A stretch of DNA of 64,000 nt, taken from NCBI GenBank assembly GCA_029260215.1, contig JAJDDQ010000075.1, forward strand, positions 27,127 to 91,126, read 5' to 3'. Of this stretch, positions 5,983 to 55,251 are shown piece after piece. Within the stretch, counting starts at the first letter, position 1, and every line of letters starts with the position of its first letter. The position numbers and the translations under genes were made by a program. Origin of the DNA: Phycisphaerae bacterium (GTDB lineage Bacteria > Planctomycetota > Phycisphaerae > UBA1845). The notes under the pieces are model-generated. The model ran no database searches. It worked only from the letters and a program-made list of their open reading frames with translations, and had not been told where the DNA came from.

Positions 5983-7023
5983 CTACTTCGCAGGCACCTT
6001 CAGGACCATTCCGATCTTCAACGCAGCCGGATCGTCGCCGATGGCGGCTTTGTTGGCTTCGTACAAGTCCCGCCAGCGCGAACCTTCGCCGTAGTAACGC
6101 ACCGCCATTTGATACAACGTTTCGCCCTCAGCCACCGTGTGCGTGCGCGATGTGGCGACCTTGTTAGCCGCCGGCCTGCGCGTGGGCACGGGTTTCGATG
6201 CAGGCTTCGCCACGGGGGGCAGTTGAACGTCCGGCAGGTTGACGATCGTTCCGACCGCCAGCGTCGTCATGCTGCCCAATTGAGGGTTGGCATCCACGAT
6301 CGGCTTAACGTAGCGGGCGTCGCCGTAGTACCGCCGCGCGAGGTCGATAATACTGTCACCGGGCTGAACCGTGTGTGTTTCCATCGCAGCCGCCGGTGTC
6401 GATTTCGGTCGATTCGCTCCAGCCGTCCGCCCCGAAGCCCCCGTCTGCGCATCGCGCCCGGAAGCCGTCCGAGCCTGCACGCCGGTCGGCTGACTTGTCC
6501 GGGCAGCCGACCCGGAATCCGCCGCCGGTTTCGGTTTTCCATCAACCGCAAAAAGACCGGACATATTCTCTTGCTTCGTCCCCGTTTTAACGGAGGGCTG
6601 GTTCGACGGCTTCGGTTTTGGTGCGAACGACTGTGCCGGATCAGCTTGTGTCCCCGCCCGACGACGCGACGCAGCGGCTTGACGCGATGCCGGCGTATTA
6701 CTGCCCGATCGGCCCCGAATATTCTTGTCGGATTGTGCGGTTTGAGGACGCGTCCGCGGCTCCGACGCATCCGCCGACCGCTTCGCAGACCTGTTCCGCA
6801 TGGGCGAGGAAGACCGTGGCCGACTCCGCTGAGCGTCCTTTGCGACGGGCGTTTTCGCGGTCGATTCAGGCTTCGCCGCTTCGTTCTGTGCAAGTTGCAG
6901 TTGGCCTGAGTCGTCGATCAGCGGAATGTCCGCTTCGGAAGATTGCCCACCCACAAAGTACCAGCCCGCAGCCGCAATCACGACCAGCGATGCCACCAAA
7001 CCAAGCTTAACATCCGTACGCAT
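5983..7023 (-). CDS. LysM domain-containing protein (signal-anchor, Arg/Ser/Pro/Ala-rich linker, two LysM domains)
   Basis: ATG 7021-7023. N-terminal TM segment LGLVASLVVIAAAGWYF. Two LysM units: HTVQPGDSIIDLARRYYGDARYVKPIVDANP...IVNLP and HTVAEGETLYQMAVRYYGEGSRWRDLYEANK...LKVP. Confidence 0.85.
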   Translation of the reverse strand: MRTDVKLGLVASLVVIAAAGWYFVGGQSSEADIPLIDDSGQLQLAQNEAAKPESTAKTPVAKDAQRSRPRSSSPMRNRSAKRSADASEPRTRPQTAQSDKNIRGRSGSNTPASRQAAASRRRAGTQADPAQSFAPKPKPSNQPSVKTGTKQENMSGLFAVDGKPKPAADSGSAARTSQPTGVQARTASGRDAQTGASGRTAGANRPKSTPAAAMETHTVQPGDSIIDLARRYYGDARYVKPIVDANPQLGSMTTLAVGTIVNLPDVQLPPVAKPASKPVPTRRPAANKVATSRTHTVAEGETLYQMAVRYYGEGSRWRDLYEANKAAIGDDPAALKIGMVLKVPAK

Positions 7024-7273
7024 GGAATCCGTCCTTTACGGAAATGACTCGCGTCAATCTCAACCGCCAGCGCTCCCTCGTGGGGGGCGAAAGCCCGCGC
7101 ACGTCGCCGCCCGCGAACGCGCCGCCGCAACGCTCCCGAAGGCCCTTCACGCACGCCGCGATGCTACGACGCGCGAGTCGGTCGGTCAACGTTCACGGTT
7201 TCGGACAGGAGACGGGGGACGTGACAGCATAGGCGGAATTTGAAATCTCTTATCAGAACGGCTGGTACGGGCG

Positions 7274-7292
7274 AAAAAACGTGTAACACGTT
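7274..7292 (-). terminator. weak candidate intrinsic terminator downstream of the 7383-10049 operon
   Basis: The minus strand reads AACGTGTTACACGTT followed by TTTTTT. The stem is short and AT-rich, so the call is weak. Confidence 0.3.
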
Positions 7293-7382
7293 CACGGCTT
7301 GGCCGCACCGAGATCACTCTCCAAATCGCGATTCATCGGCGGACCAATCACGCACGCATTGTCGGAAGCGTCTTCGCCTCCC

Positions 7383-8543
7383 TTATGGCACGGGCGGGGC
7401 TGTTCCGACTGTATCCGAACGACACCACGCACGACTCAGCCAGCGTTGGAACCGTACACCCAGCGCGCAGGCCTGCCAACCGACGTGTCGGGCGGGGTAG
7501 AGTTCGCCCAGGTGACGGCTGTCCGGCAGGAGCACGCGATGGAGATAAGCCAATCGAAACCGCAGCCCCGGCGTGCAGGCCATGTCCACCGCCAACCGGG
7601 CCAGCGGACCGTGCGCGTCGCGCGGAGCCTGCCACAACGCCAACCGATCGCGCCAGCCGCATCGCGCCCGCAGCAACCGTTCGCGGACCGGATCGGGCAA
7701 AACGGGTCCGAAAATAGACTCGCAACGCACCAAGGCGAACCGCCAAGCGTGGGTCAACCGCCACGATGCCAGCGTCTCGACGACATATTCCCAATCAAGA
7801 AAATCAGCGTAACGGGCCAAAAAGCGGTGAATGTCAATCAGCCACAGCGGGCGACCGGCTCCGTGAAACGCGGCGTGACAGCACAGGTGAATCAGCATGT
7901 CCTCCGGAGACGGCGTGAACGCGCGCGATCGCCCTATCGACACAGATCGCGCCCGCCGCCACAGCGCACGCCCGGGAACGATGCGGCTGTAACGCAGCGG
8001 TCGCCACGGACGGACATGAAGGTCCACCCGCGTCCGATTGGAACCTCGGGCCAGGTATTCCCGCTCGTAGTAATAGTCCGGAAAAAAATCGTCGCAAACG
8101 TGACATTGCCCGCGATCGAAGCCAGCCTCTCGCGCGACCCTGTCGAAACGCTGCGTATCCCCCGGCGAAATCAGAATGTCGATGTCCGACATCGGACGGC
8201 ATCCGGGGTCGTCGTACACACTGTGAAGCAGCGCCGCCCCCTTGAGCAACATAATCTTCACGCCCGCAGCCTCACACGCGCGTGCCAACCGCTCGACATC
8301 CTCATGCATGCGCCGATTGCGTGACGCGACATGTGCAGCCTCACGATCGAGTTGGGCGAGAACGTCGCTCGGTGCGGGAATCCCATCGGCGCGAATGCGT
8401 TCCGCCAACAAACCGCACAACCCGCCGTCCCGCGCACGAATGCACAATTGCTCCCACGCCCGACGCTCCGACGCTCCCGGCACGACAGCGCCCGCACCCC
8501 CGGCCAGCAGCGCGGTCAACGCAGAATGCACATCCACCAGCAC
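7383..8543 (-). CDS. nucleotidyltransferase family protein (uncharacterised NTP_transf_5-like)
   Basis: Block IMLLKGAALLHSVYDDPGCRPMSDIDILISPGD, plus a later DLHVRPW. The GTG start at 8543 lies 2 nt after the upstream stop. Confidence 0.75.
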   Translation of the reverse strand: MLVDVHSALTALLAGGAGAVVPGASERRAWEQLCIRARDGGLCGLLAERIRADGIPAPSDVLAQLDREAAHVASRNRRMHEDVERLARACEAAGVKIMLLKGAALLHSVYDDPGCRPMSDIDILISPGDTQRFDRVAREAGFDRGQCHVCDDFFPDYYYEREYLARGSNRTRVDLHVRPWRPLRYSRIVPGRALWRRARSVSIGRSRAFTPSPEDMLIHLCCHAAFHGAGRPLWLIDIHRFLARYADFLDWEYVVETLASWRLTHAWRFALVRCESIFGPVLPDPVRERLLRARCGWRDRLALWQAPRDAHGPLARLAVDMACTPGLRFRLAYLHRVLLPDSRHLGELYPARHVGWQACALGVRFQRWLSRAWCRSDTVGTAPPVP

Positions 8544-8545
8544 GG

Positions 8546-9472
8546 CTACGCTCCGACCGTCCGCAGAACCAGGTCACACGTTCGACCGAGATCCCCGGAA
8601 GTAAGCTCATAGCACTCCGCCGAGCGCACCACGTCGGCCATCAGATTCACACCGGCAGACCGAAATTTGACGAAATTGAACGATTGGCGGGCCAGCCTCA
8701 GCAACGCATCCGCCCGCGAAATCGAACGAACCTCCGGCGTCGCACCAGGCCTGTATCGACAAAACATGATATGCCCCACACGGCAAGGCCGAGGCGTAGT
8801 CGCAGACGTGCTCAGAAAATCAGGCCTGATGAACCGCACCGCGCCCTTCTTGCCTTTCAGATAGACAGGCAGAGTCGCCATCTTCACGCCCGTCGCCTCC
8901 AGCGCCGAAAACGAACCCTCTTTGATGCACAGTGCTTTCGGGTAGGCTGCCAGCTCAAGGGTTTCCGGGTCGATCAGAGCGAACTCGTCCGAAAGGTAAC
9001 GCGCACCACGCTGGACCATCCCAGCCGCCAGCGTCGATTTCCCGCTCTGCGGCGCCGCAGGGAAAATCACACCAGCCCCACCGACCTCCAAAGCCGACGC
9101 ATGAACCTGATAGTACCTCGGCAGGTACAGCATGATGTGCCAGTTGATCGACCATTCCATGTGCGGAAGAATTGACCGCCGGTCCCACACCGCGAACCGC
9201 CGCGCACCGTCCGCCCAAACCTCGTAGCGTCTGCGCAAGGACTTGCCGTTGCGCGTGCGCCGGACGCGAACATCGATCGATTCCGGTGCGGGTTCCTCCA
9301 GACGCATCTCGTGGTAAAGATCACAAAACGCTCGAAACGCGCCCTCGTCATCGCTGCGAATCGTCACCGGCACAACGCCGATCCGAAAACTGGCTGTATC
9401 ACAACCGGCCCGCGACCCCCTCACCACGGCTTCCTGCCTCGACGTCACGATTTGAAGAGGCCAACCGATCAT
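8546..9472 (-). CDS. HPr kinase/phosphorylase C-terminal-domain-like kinase (HprK-related)
   Basis: P-loop block GVIFPAAPQSGKSTLAAGMVQRGARYLSDEFALID. ATG 9470-9472 overlaps the PqqD stop (ATGA). Confidence 0.8.
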   Translation of the reverse strand: MIGWPLQIVTSRQEAVVRGSRAGCDTASFRIGVVPVTIRSDDEGAFRAFCDLYHEMRLEEPAPESIDVRVRRTRNGKSLRRRYEVWADGARRFAVWDRRSILPHMEWSINWHIMLYLPRYYQVHASALEVGGAGVIFPAAPQSGKSTLAAGMVQRGARYLSDEFALIDPETLELAAYPKALCIKEGSFSALEATGVKMATLPVYLKGKKGAVRFIRPDFLSTSATTPRPCRVGHIMFCRYRPGATPEVRSISRADALLRLARQSFNFVKFRSAGVNLMADVVRSAECYELTSGDLGRTCDLVLRTVGA

Positions 9473-9786
9473 TCGTTCTTCCCAGCTACCAGCAGTCCGT
9501 TCTCAAGCAATCCCGCCAGCGTTTTCGCAACGTCTTCCGACACAGCTTCAACCGGAACGTCGTAACGCTCCGCCAGAGACCGCGCCACCGCCCCCGCGTC
9601 CGTCAGCCCGTCGCACGCATGCCAGATAAAGTAGGCCGTCCCGTTCAGGCGGTAGGTGGTGTTGATCGCTTCATCGTAAACGACAGCCTCCCCGTCCAAC
9701 TCATGCAGCACGACATCACGCCGCCGCATCGGGGTCGGGGTCGAGGTCGCGTCGAGCGGTCGGGGTGAGACACACGTGCCGTTCAT
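9469..9786 (-). CDS. PqqD-family peptide chaperone (RiPP recognition element)
   Basis: 105 aa. VVLHELDGEAVVYDEAINTTYRLNGTAYFIWHACDGLTDAGAVARSLAERYDVP...AGLLENGLL matches the PqqD/RRE pattern. ATG 9784-9786 overlaps the stop of the small upstream ORF. Confidence 0.8.
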   Translation of the reverse strand: MNGTCVSPRPLDATSTPTPMRRRDVVLHELDGEAVVYDEAINTTYRLNGTAYFIWHACDGLTDAGAVARSLAERYDVPVEAVSEDVAKTLAGLLENGLLVAGKNE

Positions 9787-10049
9787 GACGTGGGGCTCAT
9801 TCCGCTGCCCGCCAGTGCCTGCGTCGGACGAACGAGTTGTATGACCGGTGCGCTGTAGACCAGGAGCTTGCCGCCGCCTCGAAGAATCTCACGGCGCGTG
9901 GCGAATCTCTGGGAGCGCTCCGGCTCGGTTTCGCCGCATCGGCTGGTCGCCACAGAGTCATCCCGACCCGATTCCGTCGCCAAATCTCGATTCTCGTCTG
10001 CCAACAAACGCCCACCCGGAAAAAACCTATGGATTCGATCCGCCGACAC
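9783..10049 (-). CDS. small ORF, candidate precursor peptide (twin-arginine-like motif, Ser/Thr-rich C-terminal tail)
   Basis: GTG start at 10049; an alternative GTG at 9953 gives 56 aa. Stop TGA 9783-9785 overlaps the PqqD ATG. Sequence ends ..SQRFATRREILRGGGKLLVYSAPVIQLVRPTQALAGSGMSPTS. No homology evidence is available to me. Confidence 0.4.
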   Translation of the reverse strand: MSADRIHRFFPGGRLLADENRDLATESGRDDSVATSRCGETEPERSQRFATRREILRGGGKLLVYSAPVIQLVRPTQALAGSGMSPTS

Positions 10050-10373
10050 CGGCGGAGACCAATCTGTTTATCGGTCGCGTCAACGTCCGAGTTTATTCCG
10101 GATCAGTCTGGGGAACGGGTACGGCGGGACGAATCGGCCCAACCGGGGAATCAGGCGCTGAGCACGACAGCCAGAAATGTGACGATCAACACGGTCGCAC
10201 GAAACATGGCGAAACCTCCGAAAGAAGGCAGCCTCGGGCGTCCGAGACCGCACTGTCGGCATCGGCACATTGGCCTCCCGCCTGTTGCAGCCAACGGCGG
10301 GCCTTTACTTTTGCGCGTGCTACGTGCAAGGTCAGCCCGGTAAACGAACGCCAAAAATCTGTCAAAAGTGTGG

Positions 10374-10392
10374 CACGGGTTTTCAACCCGTG
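10374..10392. repeat. REP-like hairpin, family A (GTGG-CACGGGTT-TTC-AACCCGTG)
   Basis: Perfect 8-bp stem in the divergent intergenic region between the small ORF and the ClC gene. Confidence 0.7.
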
Positions 10393-10437
10393 TACTCAGC
10401 GGTCAAGAAACCGGCGTCACGTAGGACACAATCGTCT

Positions 10438-10458
10438 GCACCGGTTGAAAACCGGTGC
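10438..10458. repeat. REP-like hairpin, family A (identical to the 1653-1673 copy)
   Basis: Same 29-mer as 1652-1680. Confidence 0.7.
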
Positions 10459-10525
10459 CACACCGAGCGGTGCCACACACGATGCCCGTGCTCTTCAACG
10501 GACCGCCAATAGGGAAATCGCTGCG

Positions 10526-12634
10526 TTGAGTCCGAAAACATCCGGCTTTCTTGAACGTCTTCCCCGCCCCGCAGCCAGGTGGAGTCGCCTTTTCGGGCTG
10601 AGCGCCCTCGTCGGGCTGGCGGGCGGTCTCGCGGCTGCCGCGCTGGAATGGGGTCTGGATCACGGTTCGAGTTTCCTGATCGGCAGGTACACACACCTGG
10701 GCGGAACGGGCGTTCTGCGTTTCGACTGGGGTGTTCTCCTGCTGCCTGCCGCCGGCGGATTGCTTTCCGGTTTGATCGTCTATTGGCTTTGCCCAAAAGC
10801 CTTGGGTCACGGCACAGACGTGCTCACGCACGCATTCCACCATCAATTCGGTCGCCTGAACCTTCGAGGCCCGCTAGTCAAAGCGACGGCTGCGATCGGG
10901 GTCATCTCCTGCGGCGGGTCAGCCGGACCGGAAGGGCCTATCGCAGCACTGGGAGCGGGGTTGGGGTCAACATTCGGTCGCGTATTTGGGCTTAACGCGC
11001 GGGAACGGCGCGTCATGCTCGTTTCCGGTTGTGCAGCCGGTGTCGGCGCGATTTTCGGATGCCCGTTGGGCGGCGCATTGTTCGCGGCGGGCATCCTCTA
11101 TCGCGAACCGGAATTTGAATCCGACGCCATCGTGCCCGCGTTCGTCGCCTCCGTATTCGGCTACTCCGCCTACATGTTGTTCGCGCTGCGCGAGTTCGGA
11201 GAATTCATGCTCGACGGTGCCAATACGATGGCGTTCGATCAGCCGGCGGAACTTATTCTGTATGCCGTGCTCGGACCACTCTGCGGGCTTTTCAGCATCC
11301 TTTTTTACCTTTGCGTCCGCACGGTTGAAGACAAAATCACACCCGCGACGCACCTGCCCGTTTGGCTGACCCCCGCGATCGGAGGCTTGGCCACCGGAGC
11401 CATCGCTTGTGTTCTTCCCCAAGTGATGGACGGGCAGTATCGATTCATCCAGAATGCGATAGACGGCAATTTTGGACCCGGAATGGGCGACCTGTCTCCG
11501 TGGTCGTGGGCGAAACTGTTCGGAGCAGTCGCCGTGATGAAATGCGTGGCCACCGCATTGACCGTCGGCAGCGGCGGTTCGGGCGGCGTGCTAGGCCCGA
11601 GTCTCTTTGTCGGCGGAGCCGTCGGTGCTTTTCTCGGGGCAGCGGCTGAGGCGATCGCCCCCGGCATGGTCTCCGTCGAACTGCAAAAGGCGATGATCCC
11701 GGTGGGGATGGCCGGTGTGCTGGCAGCGTCGATGCGCATTCCGATGGCGGCGCTCGTCATGACCATTGAAATGACAGGCAGTTACGGTCTGATCGTTCCG
11801 CTAATGCTGGTTTGCTCAAGCGCCTATGTCACGGGCCGGCGTTTCGGCTTGAATTCAGCCCAGGTGCGGGGTGCGGCGGAATCGCCCGCACACGCCGCCG
11901 ACGCAGTGGTACACATCCTCGAATCGGTCCGCGTCAGCAGCCTCGTCGAACGAAACTGGCCTCTGGTGGCTGCCCCAGACGCACGCCTGCCAGAGTTGGT
12001 CAGCAAAATTTCGTTCGGCACCAGGCCCGTCTTCGCGGTCGTGGATAACGATCGCATTGTCGGACTCATCTCCGTCCCGGACATTCAGCGTATGGTGGAA
12101 GAGCCGGGCATGGCCGACATGCTCATCGCCGAAGACATGATGACCGAGAGCTTAGCCGTCGTGCATCCCGATCACGATCTCTACCAGGCTTTGGAAGTGT
12201 TCCGCCGTGAGAATCACGACGTCATGCCGGTTGTGGCGCGCGGTCGTCACGGGGCGTGGGTGGGCATGCTCTCGCGTGAAAACGTCTTCAAGACTGTCCG
12301 CGAACGCATCCGGGAAATGCAGAAAATGGTCATTCGCGAGCATGCCGGGCTGGCTGCGATGGATCAGGAAGGGCAATTGCAGCAGTTGGTGATGGGCGTA
12401 TCGCCGATGCGCACGGACCGCGTTCAGCGACTGCTGGTTCCTTTGCAGGTGATCGGCAAATCCTTGCGTGAAGCGGATTTCAGGCGGAATTTCAACGCTC
12501 AGGTAGTGGCCATCGAGCAATCGGACGGCACACTTCAATGTCCACCCGATCCCGATGCCCCGCTCTCCACAGCGCAACGGCTGGTCGCGATCGTCTGGGA
12601 AGCACCAAATGACAGCGACGAACAGTCTCAGTAA
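10526..12634 (+). CDS. ClC-family voltage-gated chloride channel/antiporter with C-terminal CBS pair and TrkA-C (RCK_C) domain
   Basis: GSAGPEGP selectivity-filter motif, GCPLGGALFA, about 10 TM segments, two CBS-like units and a TrkA-C-like tail. The start is uncertain: I chose in-frame TTG 10526 because the 9848 ORF start would run through REP hairpins and antisense to the small ORF. Confidence 0.85.
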   Translation: MSPKTSGFLERLPRPAARWSRLFGLSALVGLAGGLAAAALEWGLDHGSSFLIGRYTHLGGTGVLRFDWGVLLLPAAGGLLSGLIVYWLCPKALGHGTDVLTHAFHHQFGRLNLRGPLVKATAAIGVISCGGSAGPEGPIAALGAGLGSTFGRVFGLNARERRVMLVSGCAAGVGAIFGCPLGGALFAAGILYREPEFESDAIVPAFVASVFGYSAYMLFALREFGEFMLDGANTMAFDQPAELILYAVLGPLCGLFSILFYLCVRTVEDKITPATHLPVWLTPAIGGLATGAIACVLPQVMDGQYRFIQNAIDGNFGPGMGDLSPWSWAKLFGAVAVMKCVATALTVGSGGSGGVLGPSLFVGGAVGAFLGAAAEAIAPGMVSVELQKAMIPVGMAGVLAASMRIPMAALVMTIEMTGSYGLIVPLMLVCSSAYVTGRRFGLNSAQVRGAAESPAHAADAVVHILESVRVSSLVERNWPLVAAPDARLPELVSKISFGTRPVFAVVDNDRIVGLISVPDIQRMVEEPGMADMLIAEDMMTESLAVVHPDHDLYQALEVFRRENHDVMPVVARGRHGAWVGMLSRENVFKTVRERIREMQKMVIREHAGLAAMDQEGQLQQLVMGVSPMRTDRVQRLLVPLQVIGKSLREADFRRNFNAQVVAIEQSDGTLQCPPDPDAPLSTAQRLVAIVWEAPNDSDEQSQ

Positions 12635-14701: not shown

Positions 14702-14870
14702 ACTCACGATTTGAATTTTGAAGCACCCGTGTCGCTCTGCGGCCATGGCGAAGTGATCCTCGCTGTTGCCTCAGCCGCACACGTGGAGCATACGGTCCGA
14801 ATTGGTTACCATGCCGAGCCAGCGAGCCTTTTTCTTGCCTTGGACGGGGAAAGATCAACGGGGATTTTCG

Positions 14871-17711
14871 ATGAACGAGTTTGCGAAACGGTGTGGTTGG
14901 TGTTCGTGCCTGGTGATGCTCGCAGGCGCAATGAACCAACGTGCAGCCGCAGAAGGGGCCTGCTGTCGGCCGGCGAATTGTATCCCAGCCACAGACGCGA
15001 CCGAATGTGATGTGTTCGGCGGCGTGTTTCTCGACGGCGAGGATTGCGCAGACAGCCCCTGCGAGATCGGAGCGTGTTGTTTCGAGCTGAATTGCGGCAT
15101 GCTCGATGCCTTCAATTGTATCTCCTCCGGGAGAGCGTTCGGCGGCGCGGGCACGACCTGTCTGGACGATCCCTGCGAATCCAACATCGGTGCCTGCTGC
15201 AACAGTGGGACGTGCAGCTTCGTTTCGCCGTTACAGTGCGGGAATGAGGGTGGAACCTGGCTGGGGGCTGGTACCAATTGCCAGACCAGCCCCTGCGACA
15301 TCGGTGCCTGCTGCCAGCCGGGCGCGTGCGCCGATCTTCCCGGCTTTGAATGCATGGCTACAGGTGGTACGTTCGTGAACGGTTTCTCATGCTCAGCCGA
15401 CGCATGCGAGCAAACGCTTGGCTGCCCGGCTGACTCCCTTTTTTCGCAATCCCGCGACGCGCCCTTGTTTTTCGCCTCCTATCTTTCCGAATCCTCACAA
15501 AACGCTCAAAGATCAGACAACTACGCCAACCTCCCCGGAGCCATCGCAGTCGTGCGCTGGTTCGCCCTGAGCCTCGCTTTCGACGGGGCAGCGTTCTCAG
15601 ACTGTGTCGATTCTTCGCCGATATTCGAGATCACATTCCACGAAAACAACGCCGGCACATTGGGTGAAGTCGTGTGTTCCTACACGATCGAAGCCCAGCG
15701 AACATTCACGGGCATCCCCTATCAGACCTTTGAAGCCGTCAAATACGAAGCCATCCTCCCAACGCCCTGCGTGGCTTCCACGGGTTGGATTTCCATCGTC
15801 GGGCTGGGCGATCCCGACTGCCGCCATTACTGGATCAGCTCGACGGACGGAGATCAGGCTTCGCTTTGCAGCAACTGCCCGGGCGGCCCGAACGTGGCCG
15901 ACGATTTCAACTTCTGCCTGCTCGGCAACGCCGGCGGCGTGTTCGGCGCGTGTTGCGACCAAAATATGGGATTTTGCTCTGAAAACGTCGAAATCCAGGA
16001 TTGTCTCGACGTGGGGCAGTTTTTCGCACCTGACAAGACCTGTGCGGAACTCGATCAACCGTGCGAAATCGTCCGCGGCGCGTGCTGTTTCAACAACGGC
16101 ACGCCCTGCTCGATCGAGGTGGAGGGTGATTGCGTCGCGGCTGGCGGGAGCTGGCTGGGCCGGGATACGGTTTGTGAACAGTGTCCGGCGGTCGGGGCGT
16201 GCTGCCTCGCTCAGGACGCATGTTTTATCGGAACTGAAAATAATTGCGGCGATGCCGGATTTTCCTTCATCGGGGCGGATACCGCCTGTGAGGACTGCCC
16301 CCCTCTGCCGGATTGCCCTGCGGACACGCTGTTCGGGCAGACGGTCGATGGGCCTAACGATTTCCTCTCCGGCACATCGGAAGCGAGTGCCGGATTCGCA
16401 CGTTTCGAGGATTTCGCGGGCGTGGCTGGCCCGATTGAACACATCACATTCTGGGGCCTCGATCTGGACAACATCGAGGGCACGAATGACTTTGTGGAGT
16501 GCGTCGAAGACGATCCGCAGTTCGAAATCGCGTTTCATCGCGATGCCAACGGTGTGCCCGGTGAACAGGTGTGCTCGTATACCGTGCTGGCTGAACGCAT
16601 TCCCACGCTTTTTGACTATCTGGGTGCCAACGTGATCGAATTCCGCGCGGTCCTGCCTGCCTCCTGCGTGCTCACCCGCGGCTGGGTCAAAATCGTCGGT
16701 TTGGGTGATGAGGATTGCTGGTTCTTGTGGCTTAGTGCGGGGCTTGGCGGATCGCTCTGCGAAGGCTGCTCGGTGGAACAGCAGGACGACGATTTCGCAT
16801 TCTGCCTGAACGGACCGGTGGGCGGTGTGACCGGTGCGTGCTGCGTCGATGAGACGGGCCAATGCGAGGAAAACGTCGATATCGCCGATTGCGCGCAATC
16901 CACGCAGCGTTTTCGCCCGGGGACCGCTTGTGCCGATCTCGACCCGCCTTGCGGAATTATCCTGGGCGCGTGCTGTTTTTCCGACGCGACCTGCTCTTTG
17001 AGCGAGGAGGTAAGCTGTCAAAAATCGGGCGGCGACTGGCTGGGGGCCAATTCCATCTGCGATTCCTGCCCGTGCATCACGCCCTGTCCGTCGGTCGGTG
17101 TTGCGGAGGGTGAGCCGGTTTGTTTCGACGATTACGACGACGTTTTCAACGGCGGATGCGATGCCGAAACGGTCGGTTTTTCACCTATCGGATTCGGTCA
17201 AACCGTATGCGGTCTGAGCGGTGTGTTCGTTGTGGATTTCGATTTTGTGGGCGATTTCGACTGGTTTGAAATCGAAGTCGCCGAGCCGACGATGCTGACG
17301 TGGATTGTCGAGGCGGAATTTCCGGCTGTCGTAGGCGTTGTCGACGGTACGGCTGGTTGCGCTGGGGCCAACGTTATCACGCTTCAATCCACGGATGAGT
17401 GCGACCCGCTGGAAATTACAGTCCCGGTGAACGCGGGAACCTATTGGCTGGTGGTCGGACCTTTGGCGGCCACCGATCTGGCAGCCTGCGGCAAGCGTTA
17501 CACAGCCGTCGTTCTGAACGCCAACGCCCCGCCGGGTGACGGCAACGGGGATGGCAATGTCGATCTGTTCGATCTGGACTTGTGGAACGCCTGCCTGGCT
17601 TCCCCCGGATCGACCGCGCCGCCGGCGTGTTTGGTCTTCGATTTCGACGGCGATCAAGACGTGGATTGGGCTGATAATGCGGTGTTCCAGCAGTTGTTCG
17701 GGGGGCGATAA
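14871..17711 (+). CDS. secreted modular protein: 9 GACC Cys-rich modules, two copies of a ~165-aa unknown domain, PPC-like domain, C-terminal dockerin-like domain
   Basis: ATG 14871 gives signal peptide MNEFAKRCGWCSCLVMLAGAMNQRAAA. Repeats are described in the findings. PPC-like segment FDFVGDFDWFEIEV...TYWLVVGP. Tail GDGNGDGNVDLFDLDLW...FDFDGDQDVDWADNAVFQQLFG. Confidence 0.8.
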   Translation: MNEFAKRCGWCSCLVMLAGAMNQRAAAEGACCRPANCIPATDATECDVFGGVFLDGEDCADSPCEIGACCFELNCGMLDAFNCISSGRAFGGAGTTCLDDPCESNIGACCNSGTCSFVSPLQCGNEGGTWLGAGTNCQTSPCDIGACCQPGACADLPGFECMATGGTFVNGFSCSADACEQTLGCPADSLFSQSRDAPLFFASYLSESSQNAQRSDNYANLPGAIAVVRWFALSLAFDGAAFSDCVDSSPIFEITFHENNAGTLGEVVCSYTIEAQRTFTGIPYQTFEAVKYEAILPTPCVASTGWISIVGLGDPDCRHYWISSTDGDQASLCSNCPGGPNVADDFNFCLLGNAGGVFGACCDQNMGFCSENVEIQDCLDVGQFFAPDKTCAELDQPCEIVRGACCFNNGTPCSIEVEGDCVAAGGSWLGRDTVCEQCPAVGACCLAQDACFIGTENNCGDAGFSFIGADTACEDCPPLPDCPADTLFGQTVDGPNDFLSGTSEASAGFARFEDFAGVAGPIEHITFWGLDLDNIEGTNDFVECVEDDPQFEIAFHRDANGVPGEQVCSYTVLAERIPTLFDYLGANVIEFRAVLPASCVLTRGWVKIVGLGDEDCWFLWLSAGLGGSLCEGCSVEQQDDDFAFCLNGPVGGVTGACCVDETGQCEENVDIADCAQSTQRFRPGTACADLDPPCGIILGACCFSDATCSLSEEVSCQKSGGDWLGANSICDSCPCITPCPSVGVAEGEPVCFDDYDDVFNGGCDAETVGFSPIGFGQTVCGLSGVFVVDFDFVGDFDWFEIEVAEPTMLTWIVEAEFPAVVGVVDGTAGCAGANVITLQSTDECDPLEITVPVNAGTYWLVVGPLAATDLAACGKRYTAVVLNANAPPGDGNGDGNVDLFDLDLWNACLASPGSTAPPACLVFDFDGDQDVDWADNAVFQQLFGGR

Positions 17712-23646: not shown

Positions 23647-25380
23647 TCAGCGAATCCAGCGCATCTGTCCGACGTTCGGAATGACGCCGTACTGCCCGAC
23701 CATCGGCAGCCAGTCTGGCCTGAGACCGGCGGGCCAATAGACGAAAAAGGCCTGGCCTACGAGCTGGTCTTCCGGGACCGTGCCTAGCTGGAATTCTTCG
23801 CCGCGTTCGACGAGGTGGGGGCCGGTCTCGTCCCACAGGCGAGAGTCCTTACTTGCGGGGCTGTTGTCGCCCATCATGAAGTATTCACCTTCACGCAGCA
23901 TGATCGGATGCCCAACGGTGCCCCAACCCGCGCTGGCCCATGCACCGACCTCGGATCGACTGTCGAATCGCGGGGCGGTGTAGAACACGTCGCGCAGGAG
24001 CGTTACGTGGAGCATTTCGAGGTCGAGGTCGTCTGCGTGAATGCGCGGAGGGCTGGACGCTCTGCCCCGGTGATTGTCGCGCAGGGCGCGAATGTCCGGC
24101 GCATACTGCTCGGCGGTCGATGCGAAAACTTGCAGGCCGTCGACGTAGGCTGCGACGCGGTAGTCGACGATTTCAAATGCGACTTCGAAGGGTTTTTCGG
24201 GGGCGAACGGTGCGAGGAGCAGCTCGTCAAGCACCTGCGAAAAGGTGCCGGTTTTTCGCGTAAGGATCACTCGGCCATCGGCGTGCAGACGCAGGATGAA
24301 TTCGTCGTCGTGCTTGCCTAGGGAAAATTCGACGGAGCCGTCGCCGGAGTGGGGTAGAACCACACATTCGATGCGGACGTCGGACACGAAGTCGAACTGT
24401 CGCGCGTGTGCCCAGATGTTGTAAGAATTGCGATCGATGATCGGCGTGCCGGCGAACTGAATCGAAGCTCGGCCTCCCTTGATCGTCAACCGGCGATCGT
24501 TGCTGTTCCAGCCATCGCCCGACTCGGGTTTGAGCGGCTCCCAGTAGGGCTGACGCGGGTCGAGCACCGCCGGGGGATAGTCGTGGTTGTAGACGTTCAG
24601 CCACAAGGACTGCTGCGCTGCTTCTGTCTTTCGGCAGACCTGCAATTTGTTGGCCAACTCGTCGAGCACGGCTTTCGGTGCGGGCGAAGCTAGTTGCCCT
24701 CGCTCGCCGGCGGAGACGGGCAACCCGCTGCGCAGCCGGTACTTGATGTGGCGGAGCTTTTCGAGTTCCGCGAGCGTGCTTTCGGTCAGCTCGGATCGGG
24801 GAACGCTGAACGCATCGCCGTCGATGATTTCGATGACTTCATCGGGCAGGCCAACAAGGCGTTTGATGAAGTTCTCGGTCGGCTCAGATGGATTCTTGAA
24901 GACGGTGACATCCCATCGGTTGGCTGCGACCTCAGCACCGCCGAAATCGAGAAGCCATTTGAACACGAGGATGCGATCGCCCGATTGAGCGTTGCTCCCC
25001 CCGCCGGATGAGCGCTTGTTACGCCGACCGCCGTCGTGGATGACGAGGTTTGTGTTGGCGTGGTTGCAGTTGCGACAATAGACGCGGGCGGAGGAATCGT
25101 ATTGCGGCTGGCGCGTGCCGAGGTCGGTCAGGCCGTAGACGTTTTCGAACCCGCAATCCTGACAGACGAGTGTGCCGTGTTTTCCGTAGAGCGAGCTGGC
25201 CATCGACCCGGTCGGAATGACGAAAGCTTCGACCACGAACGCGCGAAAAACGAACGCGAGCACGAACGCGATGACGATGGACTCAGCCGTGTCTTTGAAG
25301 GAATCCCCGCCGCCTCGTTTGGCTGCGATTACGGTTGAATCGCCGCTGCGACGATCGCGTTGAAGTTTGCCGTTACCCAT
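23647..25380 (-). CDS. lepB: signal peptidase I (S26 family), unusually long with CxxC...CxxC insert
   Basis: Boxes IPTGSMASSL, GDRILVFK, FIKRLVGLPDEVIEI and MGDNSPASKDSRLW. 577 aa. Confidence 0.85.
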   Translation of the reverse strand: MGNGKLQRDRRSGDSTVIAAKRGGGDSFKDTAESIVIAFVLAFVFRAFVVEAFVIPTGSMASSLYGKHGTLVCQDCGFENVYGLTDLGTRQPQYDSSARVYCRNCNHANTNLVIHDGGRRNKRSSGGGSNAQSGDRILVFKWLLDFGGAEVAANRWDVTVFKNPSEPTENFIKRLVGLPDEVIEIIDGDAFSVPRSELTESTLAELEKLRHIKYRLRSGLPVSAGERGQLASPAPKAVLDELANKLQVCRKTEAAQQSLWLNVYNHDYPPAVLDPRQPYWEPLKPESGDGWNSNDRRLTIKGGRASIQFAGTPIIDRNSYNIWAHARQFDFVSDVRIECVVLPHSGDGSVEFSLGKHDDEFILRLHADGRVILTRKTGTFSQVLDELLLAPFAPEKPFEVAFEIVDYRVAAYVDGLQVFASTAEQYAPDIRALRDNHRGRASSPPRIHADDLDLEMLHVTLLRDVFYTAPRFDSRSEVGAWASAGWGTVGHPIMLREGEYFMMGDNSPASKDSRLWDETGPHLVERGEEFQLGTVPEDQLVGQAFFVYWPAGLRPDWLPMVGQYGVIPNVGQMRWIR

Positions 25381-25632: not shown

Positions 25633-26949
25633 TTATTCGTGACGCAGAGCGTCGATCGGGTGCAGGATGGCGGCTTTGAACGCGGGGATCATTCCGAACA
25701 GCAGGCCCACCGCTGCGGAGAATCCGAGGGCGAGAATAATGGCCCAGGGCGGCACGTCTATTTCCACCATCATCGGGTGCAGGGAGGCGATCCGGCAGAT
25801 TGCGACTCCCAATGCGACGCCGAGCGACCCGCCGAGGGTGGTGAGCACGACGGCTTCGGTGAGAAATTGCAGCAGGATGTCGCGACGGCGACCGCCGACG
25901 CTTTTTCGCAAACCGATTTCGCGCGTGCGCTCGGTCACGGAAACGAGCATGATGTTCATCACGCCAATGCCTCCGACGATCAGCGAGATGCCCACGACGC
26001 CGGCCAGCACGCTGGTAGCGATCACTTTGACGCGCTCAAAATCGCGAAGCATCTCGTCCTGGCGGAAGATGCGGAAATCGTTCGGATCGCCCGGCTCCAG
26101 TCCGTGTCGCGAGCGCAGGACACGGCTGATCTGAAGCGAACATTCATCGACATCCTCTTCAGAGGTCGATTCGACGATGAAGGCCATGAACCTCGCCCAG
26201 AACGGGAACATTTTCAGCGCGGTCGTGAACGGCACGATGACCATCTGGTCCTGATTGCCGCCGAGCTGGTTGCCCTTTTCTTCCAGCACGCCGAGCACTC
26301 TGAAACGCAATCCGTTGATGAATACGTAGTCGCCGATGATTTTGTCATCGCAGTGCAGGCGTCTCAGAATATCGCGCCCGACAACGCAGACGTAGGCGGA
26401 CGAATCGACATCGATGGGGCCGAAGAAGCGGCCTTTTTCGACTTCGTAGTTGCGTATGGACTGAAACTGCTCGGTAGCGCCGCGCAGCTTGACGTCGCCC
26501 TGTTCGACCTTTTCTCGGCCAAACTCGACGGCAGCGGTACCGAAGATGAGCGGTGAGATGCGACGAACCTTGTCGCAGAGCGCTCCCACGGCGCGTACAT
26601 CGTCAACATCCATCCCGATGCGGCCCAAGAGCGCGCCGCGCGCACCCGGCGGTGTCCAGGGATGAACGAACATCATGTTCGTGCCGTATTCCCGGAGCAT
26701 GTCCGTGCCGAATTTTCCGAAGCTCTGCACGAGTGACACGACGACCACGGTGGACGTGACCGCGATAATGATGCCGAGCGTCGTCAGCAATGAACGCAGC
26801 TTGTTGGCCCATATCTGAACGAACGCGGTGAGGATGTTCTCAACGTTTCGATCGACGACGCTGTTGCCCCAGCGCAGCGTACGCACGAACACAGACGCCC
26901 GTGGGCGTTTGCGAGCCGATCGGTCAATCTGTGACAGGGCGGAGGACAT
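25633..26949 (-). CDS. ABC transporter permease, MacB/FtsX family
   Basis: ATG 26947-26949 (MSSALSQ...). N-terminal TM, large periplasmic domain and C-terminal FtsX 3-TM block ending TEAVVLTTLGG...AILHPIDALRHE. About 60% similar to the neighbouring permease. Confidence 0.85.
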   Translation of the reverse strand: MSSALSQIDRSARKRPRASVFVRTLRWGNSVVDRNVENILTAFVQIWANKLRSLLTTLGIIIAVTSTVVVVSLVQSFGKFGTDMLREYGTNMMFVHPWTPPGARGALLGRIGMDVDDVRAVGALCDKVRRISPLIFGTAAVEFGREKVEQGDVKLRGATEQFQSIRNYEVEKGRFFGPIDVDSSAYVCVVGRDILRRLHCDDKIIGDYVFINGLRFRVLGVLEEKGNQLGGNQDQMVIVPFTTALKMFPFWARFMAFIVESTSEEDVDECSLQISRVLRSRHGLEPGDPNDFRIFRQDEMLRDFERVKVIATSVLAGVVGISLIVGGIGVMNIMLVSVTERTREIGLRKSVGGRRRDILLQFLTEAVVLTTLGGSLGVALGVAICRIASLHPMMVEIDVPPWAIILALGFSAAVGLLFGMIPAFKAAILHPIDALRHE

Positions 26950-27002
26950 TAGAATAAACACACACTGACAATGGGAGCCATTCACTCCTGCGGAACCGGA
27001 CG

Positions 27003-28277
27003 TTACTCGTGACGCAGCGCGTCGATCGGATGCAGAATCGCAGCCTTGAATGCCGGCACGAGACCAAACACAACGCCCGTCCCTGCGGAAAACCCGATTC
27101 CCAGCACGACGGACCACGATGAAACCTGAACCTCGACCATCTGCGGATGCAGAGCAGCCAGGTTGGTCAGCACATACCCGAACCCAACACCGATCGCCCC
27201 GCCGAACGTACACAGGACGACGGCTTCGGTGAGAAACTGCGTGAGGATGTCCCGCCTGCGCCCGCCGACGCTCTTGCGCAACCCGATTTCGCGCGTGCGC
27301 TCGGTCACCGAAACGAGCATGACGTTCATAATGCCGATACCGCCCACCAAGAGCGAAATACTGACGATGCCGGCCAGCACGCCGGTGGCGATGTTGCGCA
27401 CCTTATCGAACTGTTTCAGTTCCTGATCCTGACGGTCGATTCGGAAATCGTCCGGTTGGCCTGCCTGAATCGTGTGCCGCTCGCGCAGGACGCGATTGAT
27501 CTGCGCTTCCGCGGAGCCGATGTGATCTTCGTCAATCGCTTCAGCCAAGAACGGTACCTGGTCCCGCCTCTCAGGCCAAAGCTTCAGCGAGGTCGTGTAG
27601 GGAATCATGACCGTCTTGTCCTGATCGTCTCCGAAGACGCTGCCCTTGGATTGCAATAATCCGAGAACCAGAAAACGGGCATCGCCGATCTGCACATAAT
27701 CGCCGATGATGGACTCGTCGCATTCGAGAAGCTGCAACAGCGAGCGACCGAGAACGCAAACGTACGCACCATTGTCAACGTCCACAGGCCCGAAGAACCG
27801 TCCCGCGTCCACGAAGAAATTGCGAATGGTCTGGTAGTGCTCGGTCACGCCGCGGATGGGGATATCCTCTGCGGTTTCGGAAGCGTAGGCTACCTCCGCC
27901 TGCGCAAACACGAACGGCGTGATGCGGCGAAGGTCGGTACACTCCGTGCGGACTGCTTCGATATCGCGAATGTTGAGCGTCACACGTCGCATGCCCCGGC
28001 CGCGCATGGCTGGTGGCACGTAGGGATTGACGATCATGTATTGCGTGCCGTATCCACGGAGCATTTTGGTCAGGTATTGGCCAAAGCCGTCCACAAGCGA
28101 AACGACCGTTATGATCGACGTGACGGCGATCACAATCCCAAGCGTCGTAAGAACGGATCGCCCCTTGTTGGCCCAAATCTGAACGAACGCGGTCAGGACG
28201 TTCTGCCCGGTGCGCAGCAGTGTGGAGGTAGAAGCGCGCACCAACCGACCCGGGAATCGAAGAATCCGGCCGATCAT
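27003..28277 (-). CDS. ABC transporter permease, MacB/FtsX family (paralogue)
   Basis: ATG 28275-28277 overlaps the ATPase stop (ATGA). Same architecture, ending ...AILHPIDALRHE. Confidence 0.85.
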   Translation of the reverse strand: MIGRILRFPGRLVRASTSTLLRTGQNVLTAFVQIWANKGRSVLTTLGIVIAVTSIITVVSLVDGFGQYLTKMLRGYGTQYMIVNPYVPPAMRGRGMRRVTLNIRDIEAVRTECTDLRRITPFVFAQAEVAYASETAEDIPIRGVTEHYQTIRNFFVDAGRFFGPVDVDNGAYVCVLGRSLLQLLECDESIIGDYVQIGDARFLVLGLLQSKGSVFGDDQDKTVMIPYTTSLKLWPERRDQVPFLAEAIDEDHIGSAEAQINRVLRERHTIQAGQPDDFRIDRQDQELKQFDKVRNIATGVLAGIVSISLLVGGIGIMNVMLVSVTERTREIGLRKSVGGRRRDILTQFLTEAVVLCTFGGAIGVGFGYVLTNLAALHPQMVEVQVSSWSVVLGIGFSAGTGVVFGLVPAFKAAILHPIDALRHE

Positions 28278-29014
28278 GCGACGGTGGCCTTTTCCTGGAT
28301 CGGGTTGGTTGCGGGCGCCGGCGTCTGCCGCGTGTCGGAGGCGATTCTGCCATCGAGCAAACGAATTACGCGGTGACAACGGGCTGCGATGCCCTCCTCG
28401 TGCGTGACCACGATGATCGTCTGCCCTTCCGTGTGCAGAGAATCGAAGATGGCCATGATTTCGTCGCCGGTCTTGCTGTCCAGATTCCCCGTGGGTTCGT
28501 CGGCCAGGATGATGTCCGGCTCCTGTGCGAGGGCGCGGGCGATGGCCACGCGTTGTTTCTGCCCGCCGGAAAGCTGATTCGGGCGGTGTGTGGCCCGATC
28601 CGTCAGGCCGACGCGTTCCAGAGCGGCGAGCGCTCGCCGTTTCTTGTTCGATGTTTGCGCGTACATCATGGGAAGCTGCACGTTTTTGAGCGCGGTGGTG
28701 CGCGGGAGCAGTTCGAATGTCTGAAACACGAATCCGATGCGCGTCCCCCGGATGCGGGCCAACTTGGATTGGCTAAGTCTGGACACGTCATGCCCGCTCA
28801 ATAGATACGAGCCTCGCGAAGCGATATCCAGACATCCCAGAATGTTCATCATGGTGCTCTTGCCCGACCCGCTAGGCCCCATAATGGCGACGTACTCGTT
28901 CTCATTGATCGATAGCGAAACGCCGCGCAAAGCGCGCACGATTTCCGTGCCGACGCGGTAGTTCTTCTCCACGTCGATCAACTGGATTACGGTTTGCGCA
29001 TCGCCCGCGATCAA
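28274..29014 (-). CDS. ABC transporter ATP-binding protein (MacB/LolD-type)
   Basis: Walker A GPSGSGKST, signature LSGGQKQRVAIARAL, Walker B IILADEPTGNLD. The TTG start overlaps the adaptor stop. Confidence 0.93.
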   Translation of the reverse strand: MIAGDAQTVIQLIDVEKNYRVGTEIVRALRGVSLSINENEYVAIMGPSGSGKSTMMNILGCLDIASRGSYLLSGHDVSRLSQSKLARIRGTRIGFVFQTFELLPRTTALKNVQLPMMYAQTSNKKRRALAALERVGLTDRATHRPNQLSGGQKQRVAIARALAQEPDIILADEPTGNLDSKTGDEIMAIFDSLHTEGQTIIVVTHEEGIAARCHRVIRLLDGRIASDTRQTPAPATNPIQEKATVA

Positions 29015-30366: not shown

Positions 30367-30443
30367 GACAAAACTCCCCTGCCACATTCACATCGGACAC
30401 GTGTTCGAATCGCCGTTTCCGCAATGCAATCACGCAGCACGTT

Positions 30444-33665: not shown

Positions 33666-33688
33666 GTCGAAATCCTTTTGTTGTGAGA

Positions 33689-35047: not shown

Positions 35048-35139
35048 GGTTATTCGTACTGCGCACCTGCCGTCGGCGCATGCGAAAGTGGTCAAGACTT
35101 ACTCCGCCTTTCCCGATTGTGTTCCGACCCGCCCCGCGT

Positions 35140-47219: not shown

Positions 47220-47260
47220 GCCTAACTCCTTCTGGCCACCACCTCCATTTGATCGAATTC

Positions 47261-47313
47261 GCAACCCTAAGTCAAAAGAAACCGGGCGGGGACGAGCACC
47301 AATTGGCTCGCCC
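47261..47313 (-). terminator. intrinsic terminator after the 47352-51941 gene
   Basis: GC-rich hairpin at 47272-47313 (about 11-13 bp with one bulge, 8-nt loop). On the minus strand it is followed by TTTCTTTTGAC and starts about 40 nt after the stop codon. Confidence 0.55.
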
Positions 47314-47351
47314 CGCGCCCGGGTCTTCACTCTACGTTAGCGTAAGCTCCG

Positions 47352-51941: not shown

Positions 51942-52126
51942 CCTGACCTCCTTAGTCAACCAATTGAAATTCTGTCGCACCCAGTCCAACCGCCTCTACC
52001 ACCAGCGACCTTCGCCGGATCGAACAAACAGCTGGACAATTAATCAAAAAAACTCGTTACTACATTCCGCACAACCACCGGCCGCGCATTGAAACGCACA
52101 TCAGGCCGATGCTGGACAAACGCAAA

Positions 52127-54850: not shown

Positions 54851-55251
54851 TTCCCGCTCGCAACCTTCACGGCACAAACCCAGCCGAACCCGCGACAACG
54901 CGACAGCCGATTTATGCGCGCGCACCACGACTCGTGGCTCCGCTCCATTGTAAGGATTGCGAGGCGTCTCCGATACCTCAAAATCCCCAAACAACCCCAC
55001 CAAACAGCAAAAAAACCGATGAATTGACAGTAGCGAGAAAAAGCGGCAGGCATCGAATCTTCAGGAACAGCCATCCCGAATCTGAAAGTGACATCCGCCT
55101 CGACTCCTCAAACCACGAAATCCCTTCGAACCGTGCCCCAATTACGGTTGAACGAACACCGCCCTTGACGCACAATGGAACCGTACCGGTTCCGTTCAAA
55201 CCGCCGTCCAAGGCACGCAATCGACGGCCCGTCGCCGAAAGGCTTGGTCCC

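Follow-up and report, generated by a model that had tools for sequence, protein, structure and literature searches.

A planctomycetal four-gene operon that may encode a lasso-independent, RiPP-type peptide phosphorylation system

A stretch of 64,000 nucleotides (64 kb) from a Phycisphaerae bacterium, referred to below as the window, contains a compact operon for a small peptide, a PqqD-family protein, an HprK-related kinase and a nucleotidyltransferase (NTase). The four genes, all on the minus strand at positions 7383-10049, are translationally coupled. The favoured explanation, to which a probability of roughly 0.6 is given, is that the operon represents a self-contained system of the RiPP type (ribosomally synthesized peptides with post-translational modification), which is independent of lasso peptide genes, modifies its own small peptide and yields a tiny linear phosphorylated product.

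The precursor-peptide gene is located at 9783-10049; its maximal open reading frame (ORF) comprises 88 codons (88 amino acids, aa) from a GTG start. Downstream are a discrete RiPP recognition element (RRE) of the PqqD family (9469-9786, 105 aa, PF05402), an HprK-related P-loop Ser kinase (8546-9472, 308 aa, TIGR04352) and a Pol-beta-fold NTase of family PF14907 (NTP_transf_5; 7383-8543, 386 aa). The stop codon of each of the first two genes overlaps the start codon of the next in an ATGA, at 9783-9786 between small ORF and PqqD and at 9469-9472 between PqqD and kinase; a gap of 2 nt separates the kinase TAG (8546-8548) from the GTG of the NTase gene (8541-8543). An earlier note on this DNA had described four minus-strand ORFs packed end to end with these coordinates and overlaps, and had quoted a PqqD/RRE pattern, an HprK-type P-loop and an NTase block; the arrangement is as it said, and the three motifs are present verbatim. 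The four-gene layout was found again in dozens of genomes and is therefore not a product of chance. The trio of PqqD, kinase and NTase is kept across loci while the flanking genes vary.

Lasso-free, RiPP-style (poly)phosphorylation of serine was first reported in May 2026, when Popov et al. (Nat Commun, 20 May 2026; PMC13381572) described the Linear Polyphosphorylated Peptides (LPP) of Bacillota. The LPP cluster encodes LppA with a YxxPxV leader, the RRE LppB, the HprK-like kinase LppK, the NTP transferase LppN, the SipW-like signal peptidase (archaeal-type) LppS and the MsbA-like exporter LppD (PMC13381572). No cyclase is present, LppK places up to four phosphates on core Ser3 of the linear peptide, removal of the leader by LppS depends on the RRE, and the clusters are located in capsule loci (PMC13381572). 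The authors regarded LPPs as confined to Bacillota, and Planctomycetes, Proteobacteria and the twin-arginine translocation (Tat) pathway are unmentioned in their paper (PMC13381572). The present operon is not categorically new, as the concept of a lasso-less set of RRE, kinase and NTase was already set by that work. Judged from its genes, it is a distinct, undescribed variant from another phylum: its leader is Tat-like, its predicted cores are minimal or knottin-like, and it has no dedicated peptidase or exporter. Together with about 60 Planctomycetota relatives it would constitute a sister system. The proposal of the earlier note that these genes form a self-contained module is supported, but its description of the product class as unknown no longer holds, since that class has been partly described as LPP (PMC13381572).

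The pathway that we infer, including its chemical steps, phosphorylation site, NTase product, export and leader cleavage, would begin with translation of the 88-codon gene into a precursor whose long leader is conserved and whose Ser-rich core has 8 residues. The stand-alone PqqD/RRE would bind the leader segment Y65-x-x-P68-x-I70 as a beta-strand, as lasso B1 proteins and LppB do, and present the core to the HprK-type kinase, which would transfer one or more ATP phosphates to core Ser. The phosphosite may be S82, beside the cleavage site (compare Ser3 of LppA), or the C-terminal S88 (compare paeninodin and pseudomycoidin). The PF14907 NTase may then derivatise the phosphate, either to a hexose-type phosphodiester, by analogy with PsmN, or with a nucleotidyl group. 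The leader, with its RR and AxA elements, would direct export and would probably be cut after A80 by the housekeeping type I signal peptidase, releasing an eight-residue linear phospho(glyco)peptide. RRE-guided phosphorylation of the encoded peptide is the core of this proposal and the part to which the probability of roughly 0.6 applies; each later step is much less probable.

The precursor peptide gene

A genome scan with the kinase alignment gave 286 relatives, the best 80 loci of which were used; most belong to Phycisphaerae or other Planctomycetota, and the weaker-scoring ones to Proteobacteria. With re-fetched loci added, 85 loci were available. An iterative hidden Markov model (HMM) started from the C-terminal 60 residues identified a homologous small ORF adjacent to the PqqD and kinase genes in 70 of the 85. 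In three neighbourhoods obtained by exact protein look-up, a small ORF with a like pattern precedes PqqD in each. The small ORF is a real coding gene under purifying selection: the ratio of nonsynonymous to synonymous substitution rates (dN/dS) is 0.06-0.52 over the last 40 codons in eight close relatives, differences fall on the codon positions as 415/195/607, with third positions favoured, and the other two frames carry stops. The small ORF that the earlier note had placed ahead of PqqD thus recurs and behaves as a gene. A database of 5.8 billion proteins contains 70 relatives of 56-91 aa, none of which has a name other than 'hypothetical'; wherever an organism is given, it belongs to Planctomycetota. 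No model in Pfam or NCBIfam covers the small peptide.

The conserved leader corresponds to precursor residues T51-A80 (9810-9899, minus strand; TRREILRGGGKLLVYSAPVIQLVRPTQALA), and alignment of the relatives gives the consensus [ST]RRxFLxxxG[KR]xLxYxxP[VL][IV]xL…AxA. In alignment A3, numbered over the last 80 residues, P60 is invariant and R44, R45 and A72 are conserved in at least 90% of sequences. Among the 63 peptides used for leader and core statistics, the leader Pro is present in all 63, Ala at -1 in 56 and Ala at -3 in 50. The leader elements of the window peptide are the twin arginines R52 and R53, the RRE-binding-type segment Y65-x-x-P68-x-I70 and the signal-peptidase-type A78-x-A80. 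Everything after AxA is hypervariable, with full divergence among relatives. A conserved leader is therefore joined to a hypervariable core, which is the classic pattern of a RiPP precursor.

The predicted core of the window peptide, G81-S88 (GSGMSPTS; 9786-9809, minus strand), offers S82, S85, T87 and the C-terminal S88 as candidate phosphorylation sites, with Ser at core positions 2, 5 and 8. Short cores of this kind were found in 40 peptides; they measure 5-14 aa and are 35% Ser. All 40 have Ser or Thr in their first four residues and 31 end in Ser, and Asp or Glu appears in only three. Over the whole set, Ser or Thr lies at most four residues from AxA in 61 of the 63 peptides.

Fifteen other peptides contain 6-8 Cys with knottin-like spacing instead of the short Ser-rich tail. 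In these loci, a subset of the relatives, a Cys-rich core of 30-55 residues comes after the same leader. Such peptides can be seen in loci L023 (9385-9633), L039 (5002-5262), L042 (7822-8103), L044 (9361-9657), L050 (1301-1621), L052 (7937-8200), L057 (7759-8046), L061 (1599-1925) and L063 (2945-3247 and 3304-3573), and several of the Cys-rich relatives have weak Pfam matches to conotoxin/Toxin_12 families. A gene for a VKOR-DsbA fusion is present in 11 loci, mostly directly upstream of PqqD, and most loci with Cys-rich cores carry it. Its presence next to PqqD in loci with such cores points to a periplasmic destination.

The leader looks like a twin-arginine export signal. The parts expected of a Tat-type signal can be recognized in the window peptide as T-R-R-E-I-L-R, a hydrophobic stretch, a basic residue and A-L-A. 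A literature search found no paper that links twin-arginine signals with RRE- or PqqD-dependent RiPPs.

The RRE, the kinase and the nucleotidyltransferase

HMM searches placed the three larger proteins in the families that the earlier note had predicted, namely PqqD, HprK-related kinase A and NTP_transf_5, with the kinase and PqqD just under the NCBIfam cut-offs. The PqqD protein matches PF05402 (E 3e-16), and its top NCBIfam matches are lasso_PqqD_Strm and then TIGR04353. Its best match in the PDB is 9x8z_B (E 2e-4), with TfuB1 second; chain B of 9x8z is LppB, crystallised with its leader (PMC13381572). In that structure D70 forms a hydrogen bond with the leader Tyr, N33 fixes the kink at the leader Pro and Y60 lines the Tyr pocket (PMC13381572). 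In the alignment, LppB N33, Y60 and D70 are identical to N48, Y75 and D85 of the window PqqD. The segment Y-x-x-P-x-[IV] is that read by discrete RREs of lasso and LPP systems (PMC13381572). Moreover, leader and RRE vary together: Asp in the D85 column accompanies 35 of 46 leaders with Tyr and 2 of 17 leaders with another residue (Fisher 5e-6, uncorrected for phylogeny). Kinases are not mentioned in the RRE-Finder paper or in the 2025 RRE structure paper.

In the kinase alignment A1 (38 homologues), H124, G144-K145 within the P-loop PQSGKST, and S161-D162-E163 are invariant. The kinase profile aligns the His, P-loop and Asp region with the HprK/P structures 1ko7, 1knx and 1jb1, and the AlphaFold2 (AF2) model, with a mean predicted local distance difference test score (pLDDT) of 91.5, matches the folds of PEPCK and of the HprK/P catalytic domain with probability 1.00. 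Lasso-tailoring kinases require a His-Lys-Asp-Asp motif (PMC9266682). H124, K145 and D162 would correspond to its first three residues, and the fourth position is the invariant Glu E163 in place of Asp, a comparison made with the published motif. The family is large, with 36,624 cluster representatives at E<=1e-3 and 2,375 at E<=1e-30.

The NTase matches PF14907 (NTP_transf_5) with E 1e-54. Alignment A2 shows K101-G102, D120-x-D122 and D174-x-H176 to be invariant, and K101-G102-A103, D120-I-D122 and D174 satisfy the pattern of hG[GSA], DxD and third carboxylate. Its AF2 model has a pLDDT of 92. Foldseek comparison of this model returned 5uvd, MenT1, TglT, LnuA, ANT(2'')-Ia and FKRP, all of them proteins of the Pol-beta-type NTase fold but weak matches with a query-normalised TM-score of ~0.3, and a sequence search of the PDB gave zero matches even at E<=10. 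No open paper on NTP_transf_5 was found; an unrelated paper on phosphonates contains the single mention of PF14907. From their conserved residues and predicted models, both the kinase and the NTase look active.

Natural gene fusions connect the three proteins. Kinase and NTase are fused in P0229, P0230, P0275 and P0286, and PqqD and kinase in P0267 and P0052; together, these fusions argue for one pathway of the three proteins. They occur in metagenomes and in loci of Magnetococcales and Alphaproteobacteria, for example at 9622-11856 of L081.

Another form of the NTase can be observed in P0170, P0186 and about 20 more homologues, which carry a C-terminal SET domain with the lysine-methyltransferase fold (for example L030, 2581-3999). 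The genes of these SET-domain NTases are situated upstream of the peptide gene, not downstream of the kinase gene. The domain content suggests that this sub-type may make an extra modification.

Related systems and alternative explanations

The operon resembles LPP clusters in the joint presence of discrete RRE, HprK-like kinase and NTP transferase genes, in the lack of a macrolactam cyclase, in a leader of the form [Y/W]xxPx[V/L/I] (Y65-S-A-P68-V-I70 in the window) with a variable C-terminus, and in a leader cleavage logic of signal-peptidase style, expressed as AxA in the window and as the SipW-like enzyme in LPP. The differences are also clear. The window system belongs to Planctomycetota and LPP to Bacillota; the window leader YSAPVIQLVRPTQALA is without the HQ/FET segment of YxxPxVLxHQxIxFETxxS but carries a twin-arginine motif together with AxA; the core measures 8 aa in the window versus 45 aa in LPP; and neither a SipW-like peptidase nor an adjacent MsbA-like exporter is found in the window cluster. 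The similarity between the window RRE and LppB is remote (E 2e-4).

The name 'HPr-rel-A system', which the earlier note gave for a neighbourhood in curated models, proved to be right: TIGR04352 is the best named model for the kinase, TIGR04353 matches the PqqD protein, both below cut-off, and PqqD lies directly upstream of the kinase (-NTase), as in that system and in related loci. Against TIGR04352, window and Planctomycetota kinases score 177-186 bits versus 354-406 for proteobacterial ones; against TIGR04353, the PqqD proteins score 22-28 versus 42-49 bits. The window clade scores under both cut-offs, and it is therefore, by these profile scores, a sister group outside the curated HPr-rel-A family that NCBI leaves as 'hypothetical'. 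In HPr-rel-A loci of Proteobacteria, PqqD is preceded by a gene for a protein of 84-260 aa with the N-terminal pattern RRxF[LV]KG…P.[IV].[ST]L…AxA; a Ser/Thr/Cys-rich stretch often follows the leader, and several contain a short [ST]-x-C-[LI]. Upstream genes for proteins of 170-260 aa are located in L065 (8985-9497), L067 (9066-9620), L070 (8877-9650), L072 (8452-9102), L073 (5454-6194), L074 (8974-9606), L076 (8867-9622), L083 (8980-9489) and L085 (1430-2212). Window-type substrates would be peptides of 60-100 aa, unlike the mostly 84-260 aa proteins of Proteobacteria. From these shared patterns, the leader-bearing gene upstream of PqqD seems to provide the substrate common to all of the superfamily.

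No open paper was found that discusses 'HPr-rel-A', TIGR04352 or TIGR04353 or names a substrate, and this orphan NCBIfam system now gains a candidate one in the leader-bearing gene immediately upstream of PqqD. Kinases of the HPr-rel-A superfamily number tens of thousands in Proteobacteria, Planctomycetota and other groups. The compact four-gene unit is suited to heterologous expression, which makes the function of PF14907, the possible reading of an export signal by an RRE and the role of the predicted secreted phosphopeptides open to testing. A DegP-like protease with Trypsin_2 and PDZ domains recurs in six of the proteobacterial loci.

With the paeninodin and pseudomycoidin systems (PadeK, ThcoK, SyanK, PsmK, PsmN) the operon shares the His/Lys/Asp residues of an HprK-type kinase, a PF14907-type NTase, a split RRE (B1, which reads [Y/W]xxPx[L/I]) and a precursor that ends in Ser; in pseudomycoidin, PsmK (poly)phosphorylates the C-terminal Ser (PMC6993621). 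Unlike these systems, it contains no cyclase, no B2 protease, no core Asp or Glu at ring position 7-9 and no Thr at -2, and its kinase has D162-E163 where paeninodin-type enzymes have Asp-Asp. Like Tat signals, the leader has [ST]RRxFL, a run of hydrophobic residues and a basic residue ahead of AxA, and, as for the chaperones of such signals (TorD, DmsD, NapD), the predicted pre-export binder is a small cytoplasmic protein. The binder, however, is a PqqD/RRE winged-helix protein and not a member of the TorD family, the cargo would amount to a few residues, and a conserved Lys or Arg breaks the hydrophobic region.

Genes of lasso biosynthesis were sought in the window and in the related loci. 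Pfam detected no Asn_synthase or transglutaminase among the gene-like window ORFs of 120 aa or longer (for the ABC transporters encoded at 25633-30387, identity was read from the sequence), and an SGGxDS PP-loop was not found in the window. The absence of lasso cyclase and leader peptidase from the 64 kb, as stated in the earlier note, is thus confirmed for such ORFs. Neither Asn_synthase nor transglutaminase was found within +/-10 kb in the Planctomycetota loci, and a transglutaminase-like B2 protease is absent among the recurrent neighbours of related loci. Clustering of 1234 neighbour genes showed only kinase, NTase and PqqD to be widely common, followed by VKOR-DsbA (11 loci), a GT4 glycosyltransferase (10 loci) and genes of local synteny. 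A PP-loop regular expression applied to 2344 ORFs of the 85 loci and the window matched in L048, L064, L080 and L082. The L048 match is a 369-aa ORF read as MnmA-like, and the L064 match is off-motif. Those in L080 and L082, the only two Asn-synthase-like matches in homologous neighbourhoods, are full GATase+Asn_synthase enzymes of AsnB type (~320 bits) for which no transglutaminase partner was found. In these two Magnetococcales loci (L080, 11777-13684; L082, 9306-11501), the AsnB-type gene and a dCache-GGDEF gene stand directly after the fused kinase-NTase gene.

It is accordingly very unlikely that the operon is a detached piece of a paeninodin-type lasso cluster with its cyclase and B2 protease elsewhere in the genome. 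The top NCBIfam match of PqqD to a lasso model, the YxxPxI leader and the terminal Ser of the core would suit such an origin. GSGMSPTS, however, lacks an Asp or Glu for macrolactam closure and falls short of the length of any lasso ring with its tail, Thr is missing at -2, D/E is found in only 3 of the 40 short cores, and lasso genes are missing from the window ORFs and the related loci as described above. Equally little credit is given to the idea that kinase and NTase make up a defence or toxin-antitoxin pair like MenT/TglT-TakA, in which an NTase-fold toxin would be under the control of phosphorylation. MenT1 and TglT are among the top Foldseek matches of the NTase model, but these matches are weak and generic to the fold, PADLOC gave no match for any of the four proteins, and a standing link to an RRE and to a peptide with a leader is foreign to such systems. 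It is also improbable, though less so, that the substrate of the trio is a non-peptide or an unlinked molecule (a sugar, a lipid, a polysaccharide or another protein, for example), beside which the small ORF would encode a merely co-located secreted peptide. PF14907 is a family without characterised chemistry, PsmN may act indirectly, and LppN was inactive; glycosyltransferases recur near some loci, and the resemblance of the NTase model to FKRP and to aminoglycoside and lincosamide NTases suggests small molecules or glycans. Against this stand the PqqD/RRE as a peptide-binding module that keeps the leader-contact residues of LppB, the co-variation of leader and RRE, the translational coupling of the peptide gene to PqqD and the company that the peptide gene keeps with the trio across phyla.

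Export may have a larger part than in the favoured explanation. In one alternative, which is considered rather unlikely, the leader is a genuine Tat or Sec signal that PqqD, like a Tat-proofreading chaperone, would hold in the cytoplasm; kinase and NTase would place a phosphate-linked group on the first mature residues and so tag or anchor exported peptides and proteins, for example to envelope glycans, with no free natural product as the aim. The conservation of [ST]RRxFL, the hydrophobic stretch, the basic c-region residue and AxA across 61 peptides speaks for it, as does the like N-terminal signal of the proteobacterial HPr-rel-A upstream proteins. So do the VKOR-DsbA fusion beside PqqD where cores have 6-8 Cys, with its implied periplasmic destination, the Ser/Thr near AxA (61/63), the GT4 glycosyltransferases of 10 loci, and the signal-peptidase-type leader peptidase and capsule-locus setting of LPP clusters. 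The TAT_signal models, however, barely score the peptides, and a charged residue lies within the would-be h-region. A mature part of 5-8 residues is far below the size of known Tat cargo, which is also counted against this alternative. It overlaps with the favoured explanation, and the two are not mutually exclusive. A related and similarly doubtful possibility is that the leader is dual-purpose, a true twin-arginine signal whose hydrophobic core is read by the RRE in the cytoplasm, and that the whole HPr-rel-A superfamily is a modify-then-export pathway. The first residues of Tat cargo would then be phosphorylated, whether that cargo is a peptide of 5 residues, a knottin-like mini-protein or a protein of 250 aa. 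More speculatively, poly-phosphoserine made by the kinase may serve as an NTP-like activated group, by means of which the NTase would link the peptide, through a phosphodiester bond, with a sugar or an envelope glycan.

Several observations weigh against the favoured explanation of a self-contained phosphopeptide system. Both curated HPr-rel-A models score below their cut-offs, at 178.2 bits versus 200 for the kinase against TIGR04352 (E 2e-52) and 28.3 versus 35 for PqqD against TIGR04353 ('HPr-rel-A system PqqD family peptide chaperone'). Of the Pfam and NCBIfam matches that the earlier note expected, PqqD and NTP_transf_5 were obtained, but Hpr_kinase_C reached only 21 bits against a cut-off of 33. 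The NTase step is doubtful. LppN had no detectable effect in a heterologous host (PMC13381572), and the PF14907-type PsmN, the single characterised homologue, is needed for the addition of one or two hexoses to the phosphate but may act indirectly (PMC6993621), so that the nucleotidylation envisaged in the earlier note is not established for this family. As regards export, the TAT_signal HMMs leave the window peptide unscored and respond weakly in its 61 relatives (TIGR01409 in two, PF10518 in four), and the conserved Lys/Arg a few residues past RR (K61 in the window ORF) is atypical for the h-region of a Tat signal. Unlike in LPP, no peptidase or exporter gene is found in the operon or among the recurrent neighbours of the 80 loci. 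The predicted 8-residue product is unusually small.

The annotation of the precursor gene adds two further points of this kind. The GTG of the maximal ORF is a putative start, as in-frame TTG and GTG codons follow downstream. In the sole public contig with the exact locus (4.4 kb, Logan), the gene caller took an extension of the neighbouring ClC channel gene and skipped the precursor ORF. The longest ClC-containing ORF has ~300 codons 5' of the ClC domain (9848-10750), which run antisense over the precursor ORF. The ClC Pfam domain begins at about 10754 (residue 303 of the ORF starting at 9848), and the small ORF is therefore clear of the real ClC coding region. Miscalling of the ClC extension is a likely reason why such peptides stay unannotated.

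Surroundings of the operon

As the earlier note had it, the operon is flanked by a LysM protein (LysM/Phage_tail_X, 5983-7023) and, on the other side, by the ClC channel. The divergent intergenic region between operon and ClC gene (10050-10750) presumably holds the promoters of both. No sigma-70-like site was detected in it, and terminator-like matches were at background level; scans for promoters and terminators over 6900-10700 likewise stayed within the shuffled background close to the ends of the operon. In base composition the operon does not differ from the DNA around it, which gives no sign of an island.

The only S26 peptidase of the window is a signal peptidase I of 577 aa (23647-25380), read as unusually long. 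Adjoining it at 25633-30387 are two FtsX/MacB-type permeases, an ABC ATPase and an HlyD-type adaptor, all recognized by eye. These genes lie 14 kb away from the operon, and relatives do not keep the two together.

Other parts of the window encode large proteins. The ORFs at 35140-39405 (1421 aa) and 54934-56766 (610 aa) have zero Pfam matches. Large Cys-rich, secreted-looking proteins with internal repeats are encoded at 14766-17711, 42581-44323 and 44775-47330; the 981-aa one is without a Pfam match, and the 580-aa and 851-aa ones are paralogues with common N- and C-terminal segments, each with a weak match to GBD_T9SS_assoc only. Three proteins of the endonuclease/exonuclease/phosphatase family are located at 32391-33704, 33689-35095 and 52127-55003, and the 958-aa member ends in a weak match to the IPTL-CTERM sorting signal. 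A 1545-aa protein at 47352-51989 contains Lamin Tail Domains.

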